Assembly (NCBI GenBank): GCA_048938295.1
Contig: JBHLMI010000012.1
Span: 1-25,042, forward strand
Source of the DNA: Promethearchaeota archaeon
GTDB taxonomy: Archaea > Asgardarchaeota > Hermodarchaeia > Hermodarchaeales > Hermodarchaeaceae
Direction: 5' to 3'
DNA: 25,042 bases
In this document: positions 966 through 23,371 of the stretch, piece after piece
Layout: each line of letters starts with the position of its first letter
How positions within the stretch are numbered: the stretch's first letter is position 1
Program-made: the position numbers and the translations under genes
The notes under the pieces: model-generated
What the model was told of the DNA's origin: nothing
What the model saw: the letters and a program-made list of their open reading frames with translations, nothing else
The model's database searches: none

Positions 966-2552
966 ATGACAAACAACTACCCATCTACAACCAAACCCAT
1001 ACAGATCCAAATCTGGTATCCCACAATTAGCACAATCCCCATCACCAATAAAGCGCATCTTCACACACTCATCATCACTGAATATCCCCACCTCACAATC
1101 CACCCTAATTATCCCAAATTACTCACCGACGCTGAACGTCACCTTGATATCATAGACCAACTCAAAGACGAAAGTAACCTCTATCACGGCGACATATCTC
1201 ACTTAGCTCGCATTCTAGGTGTCAACCGCACCATCATCTACCGCCACGTCCGCCAAGCCCTCAAACCCCGCCTTTACTGGTACATCGACAACGCCATCTC
1301 CAAAACCCAAGCAAGTCATCAACTCACCGAAATCCACACCACCAACACTCACATTCAATCACTCACGGATCTACAGAATCGACTCAACACTTACTACCCA
1401 AGCCAATTCCTAGAACCTGCCTGTGGACAAAAAGATCGCCTCACACAATGCCAGAAATACTTCCTAATCCTTTTGCTCCTCGCTGAAGGCGGCCACAGCT
1501 ACACCGATCTCTCCACTCATGTCGGCAAAACCGTCACCAACATCAAAGACTGGTGCACCAATCACACCCGCCCCGGCCTCCTCAACCTCGCCCGCCACAT
1601 CCCATCAACACCACCAGAACACGGAAACCAATGGCTTCCCCTCACCATGGAAGGCCGCTTCCACCCCACCCACTTCATCCAAGTCCCAACATCGATTACT
1701 GACTGGAGTCAAATCACACTTGTGCTCCAGCAACTCACTCCCCTCACCAACGAACATATGAGCGACTGGCACCACCACTTCGGCCCCATCCCACAAGACG
1801 AAGCCTTCGCCTACCTTCTCGGCAACCTCGTCAGCGACGCCGGCAAGATCACCCCCCACTACACCAGCACCCGCCTTGAACTCAACCTCTCCAAAAACTA
1901 CACCTGGAGCCAACAGGTTGGCGAAGCTGTTTGCTATTATCTTGGTCGTCTTGGTATCTTCGCCGAATACAAAACCAGCTCATCCCGACACCGTTGGCGT
2001 AGTCAGAACAGCCCCCTCCTCACATGGATCAAACACGTCTGCCTAGGATTAACACCACAGCAACTTACCACCTACATTCCTATCAATGCCCCCTGGCTCC
2101 TCACCGCCCCCAACCACATACGTACCAAATTCCTACAAGGTCTCAACGACGGTGATGGACATGTGCTTGTTGGTTACCAACAGCTTGGTAATGCTAGCGA
2201 AAAAAATTCAGGCTTTCTAACCAAATTACTCAGTACATTTAAAATTAGATCATGGATAAACATACGAAGAGTAATCATTGAACAAATTCGTAGTATTTTC
2301 ACCGCAGTAGAGTTACCCTTCTTTTTACATGCAATAGAAAGACAAGAAAAAGCAAACAAACTTGCGAAAATGATTCGGAGTAGAATTCAACACTCAAAAG
2401 TCCCAGTTTCATATCAAGTTAGTTCATATATCTGGAAATTACATGAAAAAGGATTTTCTTATGGTGAGATTGCTGAAATCATCTTCGATAAATTTCAAAT
2501 CTGCTATCATCCAAAGCGAGTTAGCAAAGTGATTAGAAGATACAAAAGATAG
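966..2552 (+). CDS. Free-standing LAGLIDADG-type homing-endonuclease-domain protein with multiple HTH motifs
   Basis: Two LAGLIDADG-like helices: YLLGNLVSDAG (1812-1844) and FLQGLNDGDG (G at 2139-2159). HTH-like segments ISHLARILGVNRTIIYRHV, YTDLSTHVGKTVTNIKDWC and C-terminal KGFSYGEIAEII. No intein termini and no host gene flanking it. Confidence 0.75.
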   Translation: MTNNYPSTTKPIQIQIWYPTISTIPITNKAHLHTLIITEYPHLTIHPNYPKLLTDAERHLDIIDQLKDESNLYHGDISHLARILGVNRTIIYRHVRQALKPRLYWYIDNAISKTQASHQLTEIHTTNTHIQSLTDLQNRLNTYYPSQFLEPACGQKDRLTQCQKYFLILLLLAEGGHSYTDLSTHVGKTVTNIKDWCTNHTRPGLLNLARHIPSTPPEHGNQWLPLTMEGRFHPTHFIQVPTSITDWSQITLVLQQLTPLTNEHMSDWHHHFGPIPQDEAFAYLLGNLVSDAGKITPHYTSTRLELNLSKNYTWSQQVGEAVCYYLGRLGIFAEYKTSSSRHRWRSQNSPLLTWIKHVCLGLTPQQLTTYIPINAPWLLTAPNHIRTKFLQGLNDGDGHVLVGYQQLGNASEKNSGFLTKLLSTFKIRSWINIRRVIIEQIRSIFTAVELPFFLHAIERQEKANKLAKMIRSRIQHSKVPVSYQVSSYIWKLHEKGFSYGEIAEIIFDKFQICYHPKRVSKVIRRYKR

Positions 2553-2622: not shown

Positions 2623-3543
2623 TTAAGACCCAATGTATCTGTCGACGGCGTCTAAGAGGATTTGCATCATTTCTTCTTTGCGTTTTCGGTCGATGGCGAC
2701 CATGCCGAAGGCGGGGATGCCGAGGATGCGTTCGACGAGTTCCGGTGAAAGGGCGCCTTCAAGATCTTGTTTATTGGCGATCGCCCACACTGGGACACCG
2801 GGGGCATCTTTGCGGATGACATCGAGGATTTCCTTTGTCGCAATGACGTTGTTGAGAGTCGAGTCCGTGATAATGAAGACGATGTCTGAACCCCGAAAGT
2901 AGATGGTCCAGAGTCGGCGAAACCTTTCTTGTCCTGCGAAGTCCCAGAGAATAATCGAGTACGTTCCGTAGCGGGTGGCTTCGATTTGTTCGATGCTCAG
3001 GGCTATCGTTGGGACGTATTCGGTCGGTGGGGCAGTGCCCTTAAGCAGGCGCAACAGGGTGGTTTTGCCGACGCCGCCTTCGCCGACGAGGCTGACTTTG
3101 AGTTTGCTCATGATGTAGTCATCGATGAGATCTTCGAGGGTTTCGGGGTTGTCGCTTTGACCGAGTTCTTTGATTTGTTCGGTGCCGTATTTGCCGACGA
3201 GCATGCGGAGAGCGGTTTTGACTTTTTCAGCGACACGATTGTCTTCGTCTTGCATGTGGCTGATGAAGACGAGGAGGAGGTCGTCGATGTTAGTGAAGAT
3301 GTATTTGCTGCCCTGGATGTGGATGGGGAGGGATGGGATGTCGGTGGATTGGACGTGGCTCATGAATTCTTTGTAGGCGCGGAGGAATTCACGAATTTGG
3401 TTGTCGTTGAGGACGACGCGCCAGTATTGTTTGCGGAAAATGACGTTGGCTTGGAGGCCGACTTCGTCTTTGCGGGGGGTGATGCTGAAAAGGATTGCAT
3501 TATGGATTATTGCCCGCACTTCCCAGGGATGTTGCTTCGTCAT
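2623..3543 (-). CDS. Ras-superfamily (Arf/Rab-like) small GTPase with N-terminal longin-like domain
   Basis: G1 GEGGVGKTT, G2 YVPT, G3 WDFAGQ, G4 NKQD. The N-terminal ~145 aa show a longin-like strand/helix order (SKYIFTNID-DLLLVFISH-DEDNRVAEKVKTALRML). Confidence 0.9.
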   Translation of the reverse strand: MTKQHPWEVRAIIHNAILFSITPRKDEVGLQANVIFRKQYWRVVLNDNQIREFLRAYKEFMSHVQSTDIPSLPIHIQGSKYIFTNIDDLLLVFISHMQDEDNRVAEKVKTALRMLVGKYGTEQIKELGQSDNPETLEDLIDDYIMSKLKVSLVGEGGVGKTTLLRLLKGTAPPTEYVPTIALSIEQIEATRYGTYSIILWDFAGQERFRRLWTIYFRGSDIVFIITDSTLNNVIATKEILDVIRKDAPGVPVWAIANKQDLEGALSPELVERILGIPAFGMVAIDRKRKEEMMQILLDAVDRYIGS

Positions 3544-3668
3544 TTCTGTTTATTGGGGTGGCGCTGATAAGCTTTTTGGCGACTAGTGTAGTGGGGGGGT
3601 GTGGGTTAGGTTCTTCTGAGGTAATCTTTTAATGCATGGAGGTTTTGTGGTGTGGCGAGGACGACGGT

Positions 3669-4919
3669 GTGTCAGCGATTGACGTGTACGAGTTGCCGGA
3701 GTGGTTCGCGAAACAAACAGAGGATTTGCTCTTTAATTACCGGACGGATATTCAGAAGCAGATGGACCGGATTGAAGAGGCGTTGGTGAGTTCGACGGAA
3801 ACGGCGGATAAGCTATTGGAAGAAGTAGTTATCGATGGTGAGATGACGGTACCTGGTGCAGCGTCAAAGCTGGCAGGTCGATTGAAAGCGTTATTTGATG
3901 AGGTCGAGTTTCCTGAACAGATTACACATTCGTCAGTGGAAGAACTGCTGAAAGATTTGGAAGGGTATATCCGTGAGGTGTCGATGGCGGGCCAGCGGTA
4001 TATTCGCCGATTACCTAAGGTACATAAGCGGGTCATTAAGGAGTTAGACTATCAGTTCCGGGTAATTAACCAGGGGTATCAAAAGATCAAGAAAATCTGG
4101 GAAAAGGAGAAGCTACCGCGGCAGCTGGAGTTAATTCAAGAAGAGGTTGACGAAATAGAAGACCGATCTCATCAGCTGGTGAAACTTGCAGAGGACCTAA
4201 AGGATCTGCAAAAACAGAAGGAGCAAGTGGAAGGGCGAGTAGAACAGCACCAAGATGGCATTGAGCAATTTCGAATGGACTCAGGGCTTGCGGAAATCGA
4301 TGGAATTCATAGGGAAATTGATGGTATCCGAATGGTGGTAACCAACCAGTTAAATTTCCTGAAGAAACCGTTTAAGAAGCTGAGTCAAGAAGCGGGTCAA
4401 TCGATTATGATTTCATCAGATGCCGGTGAAGGAGCAGATGCATATTCCGCTGATCCATGGCTAGCCTTTCAACGAGATACTGAATCTCTCTCAAAACTCA
4501 AAGCAGGGCTGAATGCCCTTGCATCCGCTATTCAGGATAACAAGATTTCATTCAAAGCGAGCCTAAATCGTAAGGTGATTGACCGGCGGGACCAAGTGGT
4601 CGAGAAGGGTGCATTAGATGAGTACCGGATGCGTTTTTCAGCGCTAGATTCGCGTAAGGAGGACCTGAAGGCTTCGATATCTTTGGAGGAACGCCGCGAA
4701 CTGGAGAGATCATTGGAACGCGCGGAGTGGGAGAAACGGGATTTAGGCGCAGAAATTGCACACGCTCAAGAACAGATAGAAAGGGTTTCAGCGCGACTAA
4801 ATACGTTACAAAAGCGTTTAGAGAAGTCCTTATCAGGAATTCTTCGGGGAAGCATTCAACTCGAATTTCCCAACGAAGTGTTGGCAGTACTTCAAGAAGA
4901 TGCAACGGACGAAACCTAA
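3669..4919 (+). CDS. Long coiled-coil protein of unknown function
   Basis: 416-aa ORF from GTG 3669 (in-frame ATG 3636 is possible). E/K/L/Q-rich heptad patterns throughout. No Walker motifs, so it is not an SMC/SbcC ATPase. Confidence 0.75.
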   Translation: MSAIDVYELPEWFAKQTEDLLFNYRTDIQKQMDRIEEALVSSTETADKLLEEVVIDGEMTVPGAASKLAGRLKALFDEVEFPEQITHSSVEELLKDLEGYIREVSMAGQRYIRRLPKVHKRVIKELDYQFRVINQGYQKIKKIWEKEKLPRQLELIQEEVDEIEDRSHQLVKLAEDLKDLQKQKEQVEGRVEQHQDGIEQFRMDSGLAEIDGIHREIDGIRMVVTNQLNFLKKPFKKLSQEAGQSIMISSDAGEGADAYSADPWLAFQRDTESLSKLKAGLNALASAIQDNKISFKASLNRKVIDRRDQVVEKGALDEYRMRFSALDSRKEDLKASISLEERRELERSLERAEWEKRDLGAEIAHAQEQIERVSARLNTLQKRLEKSLSGILRGSIQLEFPNEVLAVLQEDATDET

Positions 4920-21625: not shown

Positions 21626-22492
21626 ATGGCCGAGGATGTACAGCGGGCACTGGATAATCTTCGTTTCGACCGAATGGTCAAAGCATTCTGTATTATATCT
21701 CCTGAAAATACGATTTATCAAAGCACTCTGGATGAAGACACTAACGCGATGGTTAAGCAGACGGTGAGCCTCTATAAAGGACAAATCAGCCAACTCACTG
21801 TCAACACAGAAGCGGGTCTCGTTGTCATTTCAAAAATTGCTGAAAATTGGCTCCTTGCCGTTCTTTTTCCCCCTAACCTCTCTCTTGGAATTGCAGTTGT
21901 AAAAACTAAGGCAACTCTGCTAGCGCTTCGCGAGTTAGATCTTAACATCATCAGGACAATTCCCGCAGCGCCAGCTGAAACAAAACCAGCTCCGCCACCA
22001 AAACCCACAACACCTCCACCCACACCTACTCCTCAACAAATACCAACTACTCCACCTCCCACACCTAAACCGGAATCCAGCAAACCCATTACACCTGAAC
22101 CTTCTGTAGAACCCATTCCACCACCATTAGAGACGTCCACTCTTCCTGAAACAGAAACCATGCCTCCCCCCATCGAACCACCACCCATAGAATCCACAGA
22201 GGCCATTGAACCGCCGCCCCCTCCACCAAGACCCTCAGACGGGCGAATCGATTTGACTTTTATTCCTCAAGGTGGTCAAGCCCTACTAGCAGCCCTCGAT
22301 ACTGGATCACCGGTAGGTAGTGCCCTCTACGACAGATTCGGACCATACGCCCGTGATGTACTTTTTCTGGTCGATGGAAAGCGTGATGTCAAGACCATCG
22401 CATTTCTGTTAGGACTTCCCGAATATGCTATTGTCGATGTTTTGGAGTTCGCCATTAGTAACCGGATTTTGGCAAGTCCCGTTGCGGCTTAA
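21626..22492 (+). CDS. Roadblock/LC7-like domain plus proline-rich linker plus C-terminal winged-helix protein
   Basis: The N-terminus follows the roadblock pattern, ending NWLLAVLFPPNLSLGIAVVK. A central P/T/E-rich linker follows. The C-terminus is VLFLVDGKRDVKTIAFLLGL, a wHTH. Confidence 0.75.
   Translation: MAEDVQRALDNLRFDRMVKAFCIISPENTIYQSTLDEDTNAMVKQTVSLYKGQISQLTVNTEAGLVVISKIAENWLLAVLFPPNLSLGIAVVKTKATLLALRELDLNIIRTIPAAPAETKPAPPPKPTTPPPTPTPQQIPTTPPPTPKPESSKPITPEPSVEPIPPPLETSTLPETETMPPPIEPPPIESTEAIEPPPPPPRPSDGRIDLTFIPQGGQALLAALDTGSPVGSALYDRFGPYARDVLFLVDGKRDVKTIAFLLGLPEYAIVDVLEFAISNRILASPVAA
21961..22233 (+). repeat. Low-complexity proline-rich coding repeats
   Basis: TTPPPTP occurs twice, plus PPIEPPPIE and a PPPPPP run; C/A-rich degenerate DNA repeats. 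Confidence 0.8.
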
Positions 22493-22520
22493 TATCAGAC
22501 CTCCTCTGCTTTGGGTGGTT

Positions 22521-22529
22521 AAAAAAAAA
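22521..22529 (-). terminator. Oligo-U tract, candidate archaeal terminator for a minus-strand transcript
   Basis: A9 on the plus strand is T9 on the minus strand, in a convergent intergenic gap. Confidence 0.45.
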
Positions 22530-22762
22530 TAATGCCGGAAGGGCAGTCGAGGGAGGAGGGATATTATTGGAGGGCGAGGACGATTTGAGCCTGAAACCTC
22601 CTTGGGAGGATTCTGCCTATGAGGAGTGTAGATTTGATTTAAAATTGCGTCACTGCACCAACCGGCTCATGAATAATGTAAGTCGCGAATTATAAATTGA
22701 TATGATTTTCTCAAACTAGCCTTCTTTTCATTGCAGAATTCACAAAGATCATTGCTGTTTTC

Positions 22763-23371
22763 TCAAGATTCGTCCTGATGCGTTTCGATAATTGAACCTT
22801 CTTTGCCACAATAAACACAAATCAACGGTTGGGAATGGTATACAGCGCCACAACTAGTACAGGTTGAGTGGATAGTCGAAGGAATTTTTTGTAAAGGAGG
22901 CTGTTGTCGCCTGTAGAGTGCAAAAGGAAATGTAATCAGTGTAGCAACACCAAAGACTAACCCAAGAGGAACAAGAATCTGCCAGAGAAAGAATGAGGTA
23001 AGAAAAGCAATGGAAAAGCCGGGCAAATAGAGGTATTTGATCATAAATAACAGCCAGGTTCCTGCTGGAAGAAGAAGGGAAGCACTGAGAGTGGAGAGAG
23101 CAGCACTTAGGTTCCTAAAAAGGAGGGCGATAATGATGGCGACACTCAGCCAGAGCATCAGAGAAATGGGAAATGTAAAGTCGAGTAGGAGGTCAACTGT
23201 GGCCATGATCCATGCGAGTTCAAATAATTGGAGCAGGTCGATGAAAGGAAAGTAAATGCCGTAGACTTGCGCTTGTATCGCCGATGTTTGTGTGAAATAG
23301 AGCACAACAGCAAGGCCGAAACCAATAAGGAGTCCTATGGGTGCGATTTTGGAACTCCTGATGTGTGGCAT
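22763..23371 (-). CDS. Multi-pass membrane protein with C-terminal zinc ribbon
   Basis: About 4-5 hydrophobic helices followed by CTSCG...CVYCG. Confidence 0.8.
   Translation of the reverse strand: MPHIRSSKIAPIGLLIGFGLAVVLYFTQTSAIQAQVYGIYFPFIDLLQLFELAWIMATVDLLLDFTFPISLMLWLSVAIIIALLFRNLSAALSTLSASLLLPAGTWLLFMIKYLYLPGFSIAFLTSFFLWQILVPLGLVFGVATLITFPFALYRRQQPPLQKIPSTIHSTCTSCGAVYHSQPLICVYCGKEGSIIETHQDES

Follow-up and report, generated by a model that had tools for sequence, protein, structure and literature searches.

In the window, the whole 25,042-nucleotide stretch of DNA that was analysed, an uninterrupted ORF of 528 codons occupies positions 966–2552 of the + strand, intact as the initial annotation had reported. 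The ORF is free-standing: a stop codon directly precedes its ATG, and it lies between two other genes with its own start and stop. The features of the locus are listed below.

700–965, + strand: G-poor upstream leader of the inserted element, the outer end of a C/A-rich arm, with a TATA-like A/T box (identified by eye) ~ 20–35 nt before the ATG
966–2552, + strand: ORF of the predicted free-standing LAGLIDADG homing endonuclease; two HTH modules at the N-terminus, a three-helix module at the C-terminus
1191–1256 (aa 76–97), + strand: HTH module 1 (weak Pfam HTH_28/HTH_38 matches; model helices 76–84 and 88–95)
1455–1556 (aa 164–197), + strand: HTH module 2 (weak Pfam HTH_5/Sigma70_r4_2/HTH_23 matches; model helices 179–186 and 190–197)
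1815–1841 (aa 284–292), + strand: first LAGLIDADG motif, LLGNLVSDA, with catalytic Asp291 (model helix 277–289)
2133–2159 (aa 390–398), + strand: second LAGLIDADG motif, LQGLNDGDG, with catalytic Asp397; holds the composition change point at nt 2151
2160–2552, + strand: AT-rich, unskewed, fast-evolving 3′ part, coding for LAGLIDADG domain 2 and the C-terminal HTH
2412–2546 (aa 483–527), + strand: C-terminal HTH (three-helix module), within the AT-rich 3′ part
2553–2622, no strand: AT-rich spacer (23% G+C) from the endonuclease stop to the GTPase stop, the right insertion junction
2623–3543, − strand: small-GTPase gene (306 aa), conserved and convergent with the endonuclease gene, where a G/T-rich (+ strand) arm starts
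3636–4265, + strand: first 210 codons of a 427-aa gene that runs opposite to the GTPase gene; the G-rich arm extends through them all the same

The multi-HTH and LAGLIDADG architecture that the initial annotation had read from the translation was borne out by Pfam and by an AlphaFold model. LAGLIDADG_3 was matched at aa 387–434 (E 9e-6, 26.2 bits against a cut-off of 22.5 bits). The two motifs are separated by ~ 107 residues, close to the ~ 100 residues typical of two-motif enzymes, and each carries an acidic residue at position 8 (Asp291 and Asp397) that is retained in 26 of 26 homologs. In the same alignment, L285, G286 and V289 of the first motif and Q391, G392, D395 and G398 of the second were likewise unchanged. 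In the model (pLDDT 91.6), each motif helix is followed by helices and strands in the order expected of a pseudo-symmetric alpha-beta-beta-alpha-beta-beta-alpha double domain, in which the two motif helices form the interface. Foldseek matched it to PI-SceI, the TliVMA intein endonuclease and I-DmoI (TM by target.60–.68;.65 for I-DmoI), and further to E-DreI (1mow) and WhiA (3hyi, 8dy9). A sequence search against solved structures returned no LAGLIDADG match and only marginal HTH matches (E ~ 0.6). Taken from sequence and predicted fold, ORF 966–2552 is identified as a free-standing two-motif LAGLIDADG homing endonuclease gene, and its product is probably active. The family is Asgard-specific, with HTH modules before a LAGLIDADG core and a further HTH after it; longer homologs, of up to 1500 aa, differ by extra HTH modules only.

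The two-motif core, the predicted fold and the acidic residue at position 8 are shared with I-DmoI, PI-SceI, the TliVMA intein endonuclease and PI-PfuI. Unlike these enzymes, the protein is extended by ~ 280 residues at the N-terminus, where the two HTH modules lie, and also has the C-terminal three-helix module; its gene lies in neither an intron nor an intein.

Comparison with related genomes places the gene on an insertion of ~ 1.8 kb in the spacer at the 3′ end of the small-GTPase gene. All 19 related genomes contain the GTPase gene (69–96% identity). The initial annotation had proposed a search for empty-site alleles, and these were found in two congeners, G003 and G014, in which the GTPase gene is free of the insertion. 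At the orthologous locus L004, 1761 nt stand in place of 127 nt, with sharp ends of homology at 4886 and 6648; the empty and occupied alleles become homologous again precisely at the GTPase stop. Such presence/absence polymorphism at a single site is that of a mobile endonuclease gene. Copy number was likewise variable (0–9 copies per genome in 18 relatives), and some copies were decaying, being fragments or containing internal stops. In its own genome the gene is present as one copy, and a protein search of that genome retrieved no paralog. In at least nine relatives a contig ended within the GTPase gene or next to it, which suggests that occupied and empty alleles coexist in populations.

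The initial annotation had left a choice between a mobile element and a domesticated regulator. The empty sites, the 0–9 copies, the broken copies and the retained Asp residues favour the mobile element; the regulator did not stand. WhiA (DUF199) is a vertically inherited, single-copy transcription factor that has lost the catalytic acidic residues. The present protein resembles WhiA in having a LAGLIDADG core followed by a C-terminal HTH, but both Asp residues are invariant, and relatives have the gene sporadically, in several copies and often in broken form. The invariant catalytic Asp, the sporadic distribution and the empty sites thus do not fit a WhiA-like domesticated regulator. The Seg and Mob genes of T-even phages are free-standing and spread by “intronless homing”. 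They are alike in being stand-alone ORFs that occupy the spacer next to a conserved gene, in being found at a given site in some close relatives and not in others, and in having flanks that carry mosaic, conversion-like tracts. They differ in encoding GIY-YIG or HNH rather than LAGLIDADG enzymes, while the gene described here lies in an archaeal chromosome, encodes an HTH array and lies within an extreme mirror-image strand skew, of which no description for the phage genes was found in the literature searched.

Base composition changes abruptly within the ORF. The counts on which the initial annotation had based this statement were exact (27 C in 1801–1860, 9 C in 2221–2280, GLNDGDG at 2139–2159), and the sharp switch at the second LAGLIDADG motif held up under statistical analysis. 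Positions 966–2160 are A.29, C.38, G.14 and T.19, and positions 2161–2552 are A.38, C.16, G.17 and T.29, so that C falls from 38% to 16%. By maximum likelihood, C content changes at nt 2151, 15 nt downstream of the first base coding for QGLNDGDG (LLR 36.9); none of 1000 codon shuffles reached this LLR (shuffle maximum 8.6). Among 937 genomic ORFs of at least 300 aa, the drop in third-position C (C3) of the endonuclease gene was the second largest, and no genome-wide 5′-to-3′ C3 gradient was found in the ORFs of the genome.

The same step was present in 11 of ~ 15 homologous loci, at 40–70% protein identity and in three gene neighbourhoods. In these 11 loci C3 was.50–.72 before the motif and.14–.31 after it, and in six of them the change point lay within 50 nt of the motif. 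The step was absent from four homologous loci (L009, L010, L020 and L023). Synonymous sites between step-bearing copies are near saturation; an inherited difference would therefore have decayed, and the step must be actively maintained. The composition step is thus a family-wide, maintained boundary and not the scar of one fusion.

This result bears directly on the proposal of the initial annotation, in which a single recombination event at the second motif had brought in domain 2 and the terminal HTH, from a donor of different composition. The position of the step, no more than 15 nt from the motif, agrees with such an event, as does the lower conservation of the C part within the close clade (40–59% identity, against 68–75% for the N part). 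The window protein and P0002 also pair strongly in the C-part tree (99/96) and not in the N-part tree, but the AU test does not reject this pair on the N part (p = 0.118). The incongruent half-trees that such a fusion predicts were not obtained: the 7-member clade and the major pairs of the N-part tree reappear in the C-part tree. The closest relative, P0008, is collinear across the motif with 83% identity before it and 76% after it, and a C-part-only search gave no closer donor, the window C part having no closer relative than the N part. The combination expected of a chimera, halves with different nearest relatives together with homologs lacking the step, was not found. With the step recurring in 11 homologous loci, some as little as 40% identical, and in varied neighbourhoods, and with nearly saturated synonymous sites at which an inherited difference would have decayed, the single-event form is refuted, and a lone chimera as the source of the step is considered highly improbable. 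Still smaller, and in effect negligible, is the chance of an assembly artefact in which sequences of two organisms or strains were fused near nt 2150. The gene does lie ~ 1 kb from the contig end, and related assemblies often break near the locus. The junction is nevertheless crossed by contigs from other samples, namely X1 (1787–2717, 0 differences), X2 (1526–2717, 1 difference) and X5 (2114–2511, 0 differences, from another study), which disposes of an assembly chimera at 2100–2200, and the same step is seen in independently assembled homologs.

Exchange does occur within the family. L006 and G011 are identical over their last 890 nt, junction included, and differ at 50 positions (4.8%) in the preceding 1046 nt. 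For P0003 and P0004, compared at the protein level, identity is 87% across the C part against 75% across the N part; the incongruence of this pair on the N part was borderline by the AU test (p = 0.054). Such patterns show mosaic exchange with its anchor at the 3′ end. The specificity shuffling by C-part exchange that the initial annotation had suggested is therefore retained in part, as 3′-biased mosaic exchange in the family, and dropped as a single event in this gene. No inter-family fusion of endonuclease halves was seen, both halves belonging to one collinear family. The composition boundary corresponds to the junction of half-domains at the LAGLIDADG helices that was used in E-DreI and DmoCre; these are laboratory fusions of two enzymes, in contrast to the one collinear family described here.

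The step within the ORF is one edge of a larger pattern, of which two elements, a depletion of G upstream of the gene and a mirror-image G-rich bias to its right, were not remarked in the initial annotation. The left arm, comprising the leader and the first 390 codons, is strongly C/A-rich and G/T-poor. Depletion of G begins ~ 200 nt upstream of the ATG (positions 720–965 contain 8% G and 24% C), with a skew change point at 764. At L004 the skew starts at 4888, and the left edge of the insertion relative to the empty allele is 4886. Left-arm skew peaks far from the centre rather than adjoining it, and the encoded amino acids are shifted towards more Thr, His and Pro and fewer Val, Gly, Ala and Glu. 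The centre, from helix 2 to the GTPase stop, is unskewed, AT-rich and fast-evolving; third positions in 2160–2552 are A.39–.43, C.16–.18, G.08–.09 and T.32–.34. To the right, ~ 1.8 kb (2640 to ~ 4300) is G/T-rich on the same strand regardless of gene direction. Third positions are rich in + strand G in both genes of this arm, the GTPase gene on the − strand and the 427-aa gene on the + strand, and in 3636–4265 third-position G is.40–.50 and C.09–.14 (genome means.19 and.25). The G-rich pattern of the 427-aa gene is also found at L004 and in the empty-site genome G003. Sense-strand C3 of the GTPase gene is.55–.69 whether the endonuclease gene adjoins it or is absent; the neighbouring endonuclease gene was ruled out as the cause of this C3-richness, as the empty-site genomes are equally C3-rich. 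The G/T-rich strand is always the one running 5′-to-3′ outward from the centre.

The pattern recurs at other sites in the genome. Its five longest extreme-skew islands (1.2–1.6 kb) all lie on LAGLIDADG-type genes, a type assigned to the C62 gene by fold match only (model pLDDT 79.6, no Pfam call) and to the C18 and C37 genes by motifs identified by eye (with a weak Pfam match for C37 and no Pfam call for C18). Strong skew flips were origin-like at 19 of 21 sites, and at 6 of 6 under a stricter setting. In the PolD DP2 gene, third positions are C.60 and G.02 before the intein and C.53 and G.08 up to motif 2; an AT-rich stretch then runs to the intein end, and the C-extein has G.44, T.33 and C.13. 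The C38:89500 and C33:109400 sites consist of tandem same-strand genes with opposite skews. Relative to helix 2, the boundary is offset by + 12 nt in the present gene and + 3 nt in C62; for C18 and the PolD intein the offsets are − 26 and − 91 nt. In C62, which is unrelated to the present gene, the skewed arm follows the motif and is G/T-rich in sense, and an ortholog of that family with 56% identity keeps the boundary at − 30 nt. No homology of the C62 and C18 endonucleases to the present family was detected by hhalign. The occurrence of the C62 boundary at the same structural point, together with the mosaic exchange of the 3′ part, makes recurrent turnover of the junction-side half-domain plausible as a family-wide process. 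Skew as a universal LAGLIDADG property was rejected: among 20 Pfam-detected LAGLIDADG_3 stretches the pattern was present only in the PolD intein and in this gene, and most intein endonuclease genes of the same genome have no skew.

Selection on expression could in principle favour C-ending or G/U-avoiding codons over the first 390 codons, for efficient translation or an unstructured mRNA, and rare A/T-ending codons over the last 130, where slow translation would aid folding or limit a toxic enzyme. The conservation of the step in the family and its position at a domain boundary fit this idea, and the genes of several abundant proteins (actin, small GTPases, hydrogenase) and one ribosomal protein gene are also C3-rich in the genome. 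Expression-linked codon bias, raised by the C3-richness of actin, the GTPases and the ribosomal protein gene, was rejected on finding that EF-1alpha, both thermosomes and uL2–uL4 are average in C3 (.16–.26). The bias moreover covers ~ 200 nt of noncoding upstream sequence and ends at the L004 insertion edge, reverses inside one reading frame in PolD, and in the C62 family falls after the motif as G/T-richness in sense. The amino-acid make-up is itself shifted, which points to mutation pressure. Selection on expression is thus regarded as distinctly improbable. Because the noncoding upstream region is covered, abundant-protein genes are average and some cases are independent of gene orientation, the skew is positional and not a product of codon selection. 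A mutational effect of transcription is less readily dismissed but is still judged unlikely. If the AT-rich centre were a strong bidirectional promoter island, outward transcripts would expose the non-template strand, from which C and A would be lost, and the observed polarity, with the outward 5′-to-3′ strand G/T-rich, is the one predicted, with no need for a DNA break. At C38:89500 the left gene is transcribed outward and is G/T-rich in sense, in agreement with this mechanism. AT-rich islands in archaea are rich in TATA-like sequence. Transcription would, however, have to be stronger antisense than sense through the GTPase gene and the PolD N-extein. EF-1alpha, thermosome and ribosomal protein genes are normally the most transcribed of a cell, and here they are almost unskewed (+ 0.00 to + 0.12), so that any transcriptional mutation effect looks weak in this genome. 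The link to endonucleases, the empty/occupied polymorphism and the 3′-anchored identical tracts are also left unexplained by it.

The most likely cause, we infer, is a footprint of recurrent break repair combined with turnover of the junction-side half-domain. Double-strand breaks, putatively recurring at or near the endonuclease/target junction, would be repaired from a homologous copy, by homing or by gene conversion between variants. Repair synthesis proceeding outward would then mark the outward strand with C-to-T and A-to-G changes specific to it. The gap would take in the junction-side half-domain, which would be resynthesised on both strands and often be replaced from another variant, and the conserved helix-2 coding DNA would be the point at which homology resumes. 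Strand asymmetry through single-strand exposure is known from the L and H strands of vertebrate mitochondria, from the leading-strand G/T excess at bacterial origins and from nascent-strand damage in break-induced replication (PMC9262586). The present pattern is similar in its A+C-rich against G+T-rich strands and its flip at a point; here, by contrast, the arms span 1–2 kb and not a whole replicon, the flip lies at endonuclease insertion sites, and an unskewed AT-rich centre of ~ 0.5 kb separates the arms. In migrating-bubble repair synthesis, nascent single-stranded DNA is a main target of mutation (PMC9262586). Literature searches on LAGLIDADG genes in Asgard archaea, and on strand asymmetry where homing endonucleases or inteins are inserted, returned nothing relevant.

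Several observations run counter to a repair origin. The simplest repair model, deamination of the 3′ resection tail, predicts a polarity opposite to that observed. The four loci without the step and the general lack of skew in intein endonuclease genes also count against it, as does the independence of the right-arm bias from present occupancy. The same is true of the left-arm skew, which is strongest at a distance from the centre, and, for the proposed half-domain turnover, of the borderline AU result and of the window C part, whose relatives are no closer than those of the N part. The combined account, of a mobile endonuclease, a maintained step and a break-repair footprint, is the best explanation of the locus as a whole and is given about an even chance of being correct. 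The more specific proposal is tentative and is held at appreciably lower confidence: the step would mark the edge of a recurrent break-repair zone, the target-side half-domain would be a fast-turnover cassette subject to natural half-site shuffling, and the arms would be a 1–2 kb footprint of outward synthesis.

Homing endonucleases serve as models of selfish genes and as scaffolds for genome editing, and how they gain new specificities in nature is debated. Two unrelated archaeal endonuclease families share a conserved boundary exactly between their two DNA-reading halves, with a junction-side half that evolves fast and is sometimes exchanged. The accompanying mirror bias is extreme at silent sites, third-position G being 2–8% on one side and 40–50% on the other. 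If the repair interpretation is true, local codon bias in these genomes can be mutational and can mimic both horizontal transfer and expression-linked codon usage, a practical warning for the reading of such genomes. The arms would then preserve the traces of double-strand-break repair in Asgard archaea over long times, which is rare. For uncultured archaea, the sequence alone could reveal where endonucleases cut, how long repair tracts are and which sites, whether occupied or empty, are long-term hot spots of homing.

The window is the 25-kb start of contig C1 in a genome of 2.52 Mb (G000; 66 contigs, 45.8% G+C), and the gene studied lies among the following features:

164-676: ferritin-like ORF, left neighbour
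966-2552, plus strand: intact endonuclease ORF of 528 codons
2623-3543, minus strand: conserved small-GTPase gene
3636 onward, plus strand: gene for a 427-aa protein

The composition step described in the initial annotation was confirmed, and its counts of 27 C in 1801-1860 and 9 C in 2221-2280 were correct, as was the placement of GLNDGDG, in the second LAGLIDADG motif (motif 2, helix 2), at 2139-2159. Base shares in the ORF were A.29, C.38, G.14, T.19 up to nt 2160 and A.38, C.16, G.17, T.29 past it. The best change point for C content was nt 2151, and the observed likelihood ratio was approached by none of 1000 codon shuffles. The internal drop in third-position C ranked second among 937 long ORFs of the genome. 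Depletion of G begins ~200 nt 5' of the ATG, within non-coding DNA, and the DNA right of the gene carries the opposite bias to the left part of the ORF.

Pfam analysis of the 528-aa protein gave a LAGLIDADG_3 match at residues 387-434 and weak HTH matches at residues 76-97 and 164-194. Approximately 30 full-length homologs (516-575 aa, 39-69% identity, 97-100% coverage) were found in Promethearchaeota and Hodarchaeota metagenome assemblies. An exhaustive search yielded 305 cluster representatives, many of which are longer proteins ending in the same ~515-residue module; the additional parts of six long homologs gave HTH-type matches only, or no match. The homolog alignment is collinear over its full length, with D291 (motif 1, position 8) and D397 (motif 2, position 8) invariant. 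In the AlphaFold model (pLDDT 91.6, pTM.82), two N-terminal HTH modules are followed by two LAGLIDADG half-domains and a C-terminal three-helix module. Foldseek matched this model to PI-SceI, the TliVMA intein endonuclease, I-DmoI, E-DreI and WhiA, while a sequence search against solved structures gave no match at sequence level. Because the invariant aspartates accompany the alignment, Pfam, model and fold evidence, the protein is assigned as a LAGLIDADG enzyme that, unlike WhiA, retains its catalytic residues. Judged by sequence and model, the gene is a member of the free-standing LAGLIDADG homing endonucleases, a known kind, and cleavage is predicted.

The initial annotation attributed the step to a single exchange of the second domain at motif 2. 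This reading was refuted by a step shared among homologs, by agreeing trees and by the nearest relative. The C share at third codon positions (C3) was.52-.72 before and.14-.31 after the motif in seven loci of other assemblies (L002, L004, L005, L006, L007, L008 and L011), and the same step was present in L019, L021 and, as judged from the skew profile, L012; it was weak or absent in L009, L010, L020 and L023. In six loci the change point lay within 50 nt of the motif. Separate trees of the parts before and after motif 2 (N part and C part) both placed the window's protein in the same seven-member clade and agreed on the major pairs. P0008, the closest relative, has 83% identity upstream of the motif and 76% downstream, and a search with the C part alone found no closer relative. 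An assembly artefact at the step, the other possibility raised, was excluded by independent contigs from three sequencing runs, one belonging to another study, which cross 2100-2200 with 0-1 differences. Clade members agreed at.52-.75 of third positions before the motif and at.33-.45 after it, slightly above the level expected from shared composition alone. The copies are accordingly old, and inheritance alone would not have preserved the step, which must be maintained.

Exchange between copies was detected elsewhere in the family. Within the close clade, N-part identities were star-like at.68-.75 and C-part identities were.40-.59, except for P0003/P0004 at.87. These two proteins share a block of 89-97% identity beginning ~45 alignment columns ahead of the motif, and P0004/P0005 share a 90-95% block terminating near motif 1. 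In the sole closely related pair with DNA (locus L006 and genome G011), 50 differences from -177 to +869 were followed by none over the next 890 nt (C part, spacer and into the GTPase end), which places the breakpoint at about motif 1. On the strength of these sequence blocks, exchange between copies is real, with anchoring at the 3' junction in two of three events. Exchange of the kind originally proposed thus survives for other clade members, but with breakpoints at places besides motif 2, and the window's own gene shows no such event.

The gene is also mobile. Copies 66-68% identical occupy the same place in L004 and L005, where the endonuclease gene is followed by the GTPase gene, the 427-aa gene, a small ORF, an aminotransferase gene and a histone gene; two further conserved neighbourhoods host more distant copies. 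Copy number ranged from 0 to 9 among 18 genomes of the same family-level group, and these copies include fragments and ORFs with stop codons; many of the copies are at contig ends. The GTPase neighbour was found in 19 of 19 genomes. Empty-site alleles, which the initial annotation had suggested seeking, were found in two congeners (G003 and G014), where the GTPase gene has no adjoining endonuclease gene. Occupied L004 and empty G003 are 89% identical as far as L004 position 4886 and 86% identical from 6648, the GTPase stop, onward; the insert in L004 is 1761 nt (114-nt leader, ORF, 72-nt spacer) where G003 has 127 nt. The GTPase ends in IGTE in empty alleles and in IGS or IGTG in occupied alleles. 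A DUF3795 gene stands in L004 and G003 in place of the window's ferritin-like ORF, so within the genus conservation is limited to the right flank of the site. Of the two roles first suggested, mobile element is favoured by the empty sites, variable copy number and decayed copies, and domesticated regulator is disfavoured by the retained catalytic residues. Overall, the earlier interpretation is partly supported, as a mobile gene with exchange among clade members but not as a single chimera.

Several further features were observed at these junctions. Contigs break within or beside the GTPase ortholog in at least nine relatives (G001, G002, G004-G007, G009, G010 and G012), at about residues 147-294 in L032, L034, L036 and L040-L045, which suggests several 3'-half alleles within those populations. 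In one distant ortholog (L007:6617-7547), the endonuclease gene is separated from the 580-aa gene that adjoins it in L011 by a pair of small ORFs (148 and 164 aa, minus strand), both AT-rich and unskewed; the G-rich arm begins only past them, and they look like a later insertion into the same junction. At window positions 1881 and 1927, loose-end contigs in runs X1-X3, from the same samples, match the conserved GEAxCYYLG-region block and then diverge into sequence whose translation resembles the P0019/P0022 type of the family. These contigs suggest that the sampled sediments harbour several family members side by side.

An absolute GC skew of at least.42 over 500 nt or more is reached by just 12 stretches of the genome. 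The five longest (1.2-1.6 kb, with a C-rich strand of roughly A.30, C.38, G.13, T.19 in each case) are hosted by the gene studied, the PolD DP2 intein and three other genes, on contigs C62, C18 and C37, that carry LAGLIDADG-type motifs. The C62 gene was confirmed as LAGLIDADG-type by fold, and the C37 protein shares an N-terminal module with the studied family. Relative to motif 2, the change point lies at +12 nt in the studied gene, -26 nt in the C18 gene, -91 nt in the PolD intein and +3 nt in the C62 gene, where the skewed part follows the motif and is G/T-rich in sense. Third positions in a 56%-identical C62-family ortholog from another genome change from A.26, C.21, G.17, T.36 on the 5' side of motif 2 to A.02, C.05, G.53, T.40 on its 3' side; the change point there is 30 nt away from the motif, and the DNA 5' of the gene includes a C/A-rich stretch. 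The C37 gene is the exception, its boundary lying ahead of motif 1. In the studied and C62 genes the unskewed part is the half-domain adjoining the neighbouring conserved gene. The half-domain concerned is domain 2 in the studied family and domain 1 in that of C62; a similar arrangement seems to hold for the C18 gene, beside an actin tail. Another C62-type gene (L048:4001-5848, another genome) sits immediately 5' of a Trm112-like gene and uL22, at about the normal uS19 place in the ribosomal protein operon, and in the window's genome an orphan uS19 adjoins the C62-type gene.

The skew was independent of gene direction. The minus-strand GTPase gene has a sense C3 of.55, and the first 210 codons of the plus-strand 427-aa gene have a third-position G share (G3) of.40-.50 with C3 of.09-.14; both genes are therefore G-rich on the plus strand, as they are in L004 and empty-site G003. 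Third positions along the PolD gene pass through four states: C.60/G.02 before the intein, C.53/G.08 up to motif 2, A.38/T.36 from motif 2 to the intein end, and G.44/T.33/C.13 in the C-extein. At C38:89500 and C33:109400, genes in tandem on one strand differ in the sign of their third-position skew. Codon or mRNA selection as the cause of the step is contradicted by this independence of orientation and by the bias in non-coding DNA, and expression-linked codon bias is ruled out by the C3 of only.16-.26 in EF-1alpha, both thermosomes and uL2-uL4. Strong local flips, read 5' to 3' on any strand, run from C-rich to G-rich at 19 of 21 sites (6 of 6 under a stricter setting), and the studied locus is the second strongest. 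Mutation driven by outward transcription from the AT-rich centre would yield this polarity; it is nevertheless an unlikely cause, as it would have to be stronger than transcription-linked mutation at EF-1alpha and the thermosomes, genes with almost no skew.

Flips were also seen at other places. Window 22400-22900 holds a second origin-like flip, with skew of about -0.32 in the 600 nt left and +0.27 right of 22650, between a 288-aa gene (plus strand) and a 202-aa gene (minus strand) and with no endonuclease gene evident. Two other small-GTPase genes have flips at their 3' ends, at C38:89425-89611 and C33:108871-109411, between tandem same-strand genes of opposite third-position bias (for example, sense G3.43 left and sense C3.61 right); these look like unoccupied versions of the studied site. 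Equally sharp internal C3 drops (.40-.56 to.09-.18) occur in housekeeping-type genes of G000:

C2:23531-24700
C2:179807-180787
C47:22096-23004
C6:50837-51766
C14:8390-10708

From their first residues, read by eye rather than by Pfam, we take these to be thiolase-like, two 2-oxoacid:ferredoxin oxidoreductase beta subunits, MetF-like and pyrophosphatase-like.

The bias is positional and strand-specific, changes sign across a ~0.5-kb AT-rich centre and extends 1-2 kb each way. We infer that it marks sites now or formerly occupied by endonuclease genes and that break repair is its cause: it would have built up over repeated breaks near the endonuclease/target junction, with a homologous copy as the repair template. 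Losses of C and A mark the strand that runs outward from the centre, a signature that deamination produces in a transiently single-stranded strand; nascent strands in migrating-bubble repair synthesis are described as such a target in PMC9262586. The centre would be a gap resynthesised on both strands, and for that reason unskewed, AT-rich and fast-evolving, with identical tracts crossing the junction. The DNA encoding helix 2 is the best conserved stretch; homology may resume there, which would account for the recurring boundary and leave the junction-side half-domain replaceable from a competing variant. Against this mechanism, the polarity expected from deamination of resected 3' tails is the reverse of that observed, the left-arm skew peaks at its far end, and most inteins of the genome have no such skew. 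Since the GTPase gene is equally biased at empty sites, break repair as the cause also requires long persistence of the mark or recurrent invasion. A positional mutation pattern of this kind was not found in the papers searched. The conserved composition boundary inside the endonuclease gene is part of a striking positional mutation pattern, for which repeated break repair is the favoured, proposed cause.
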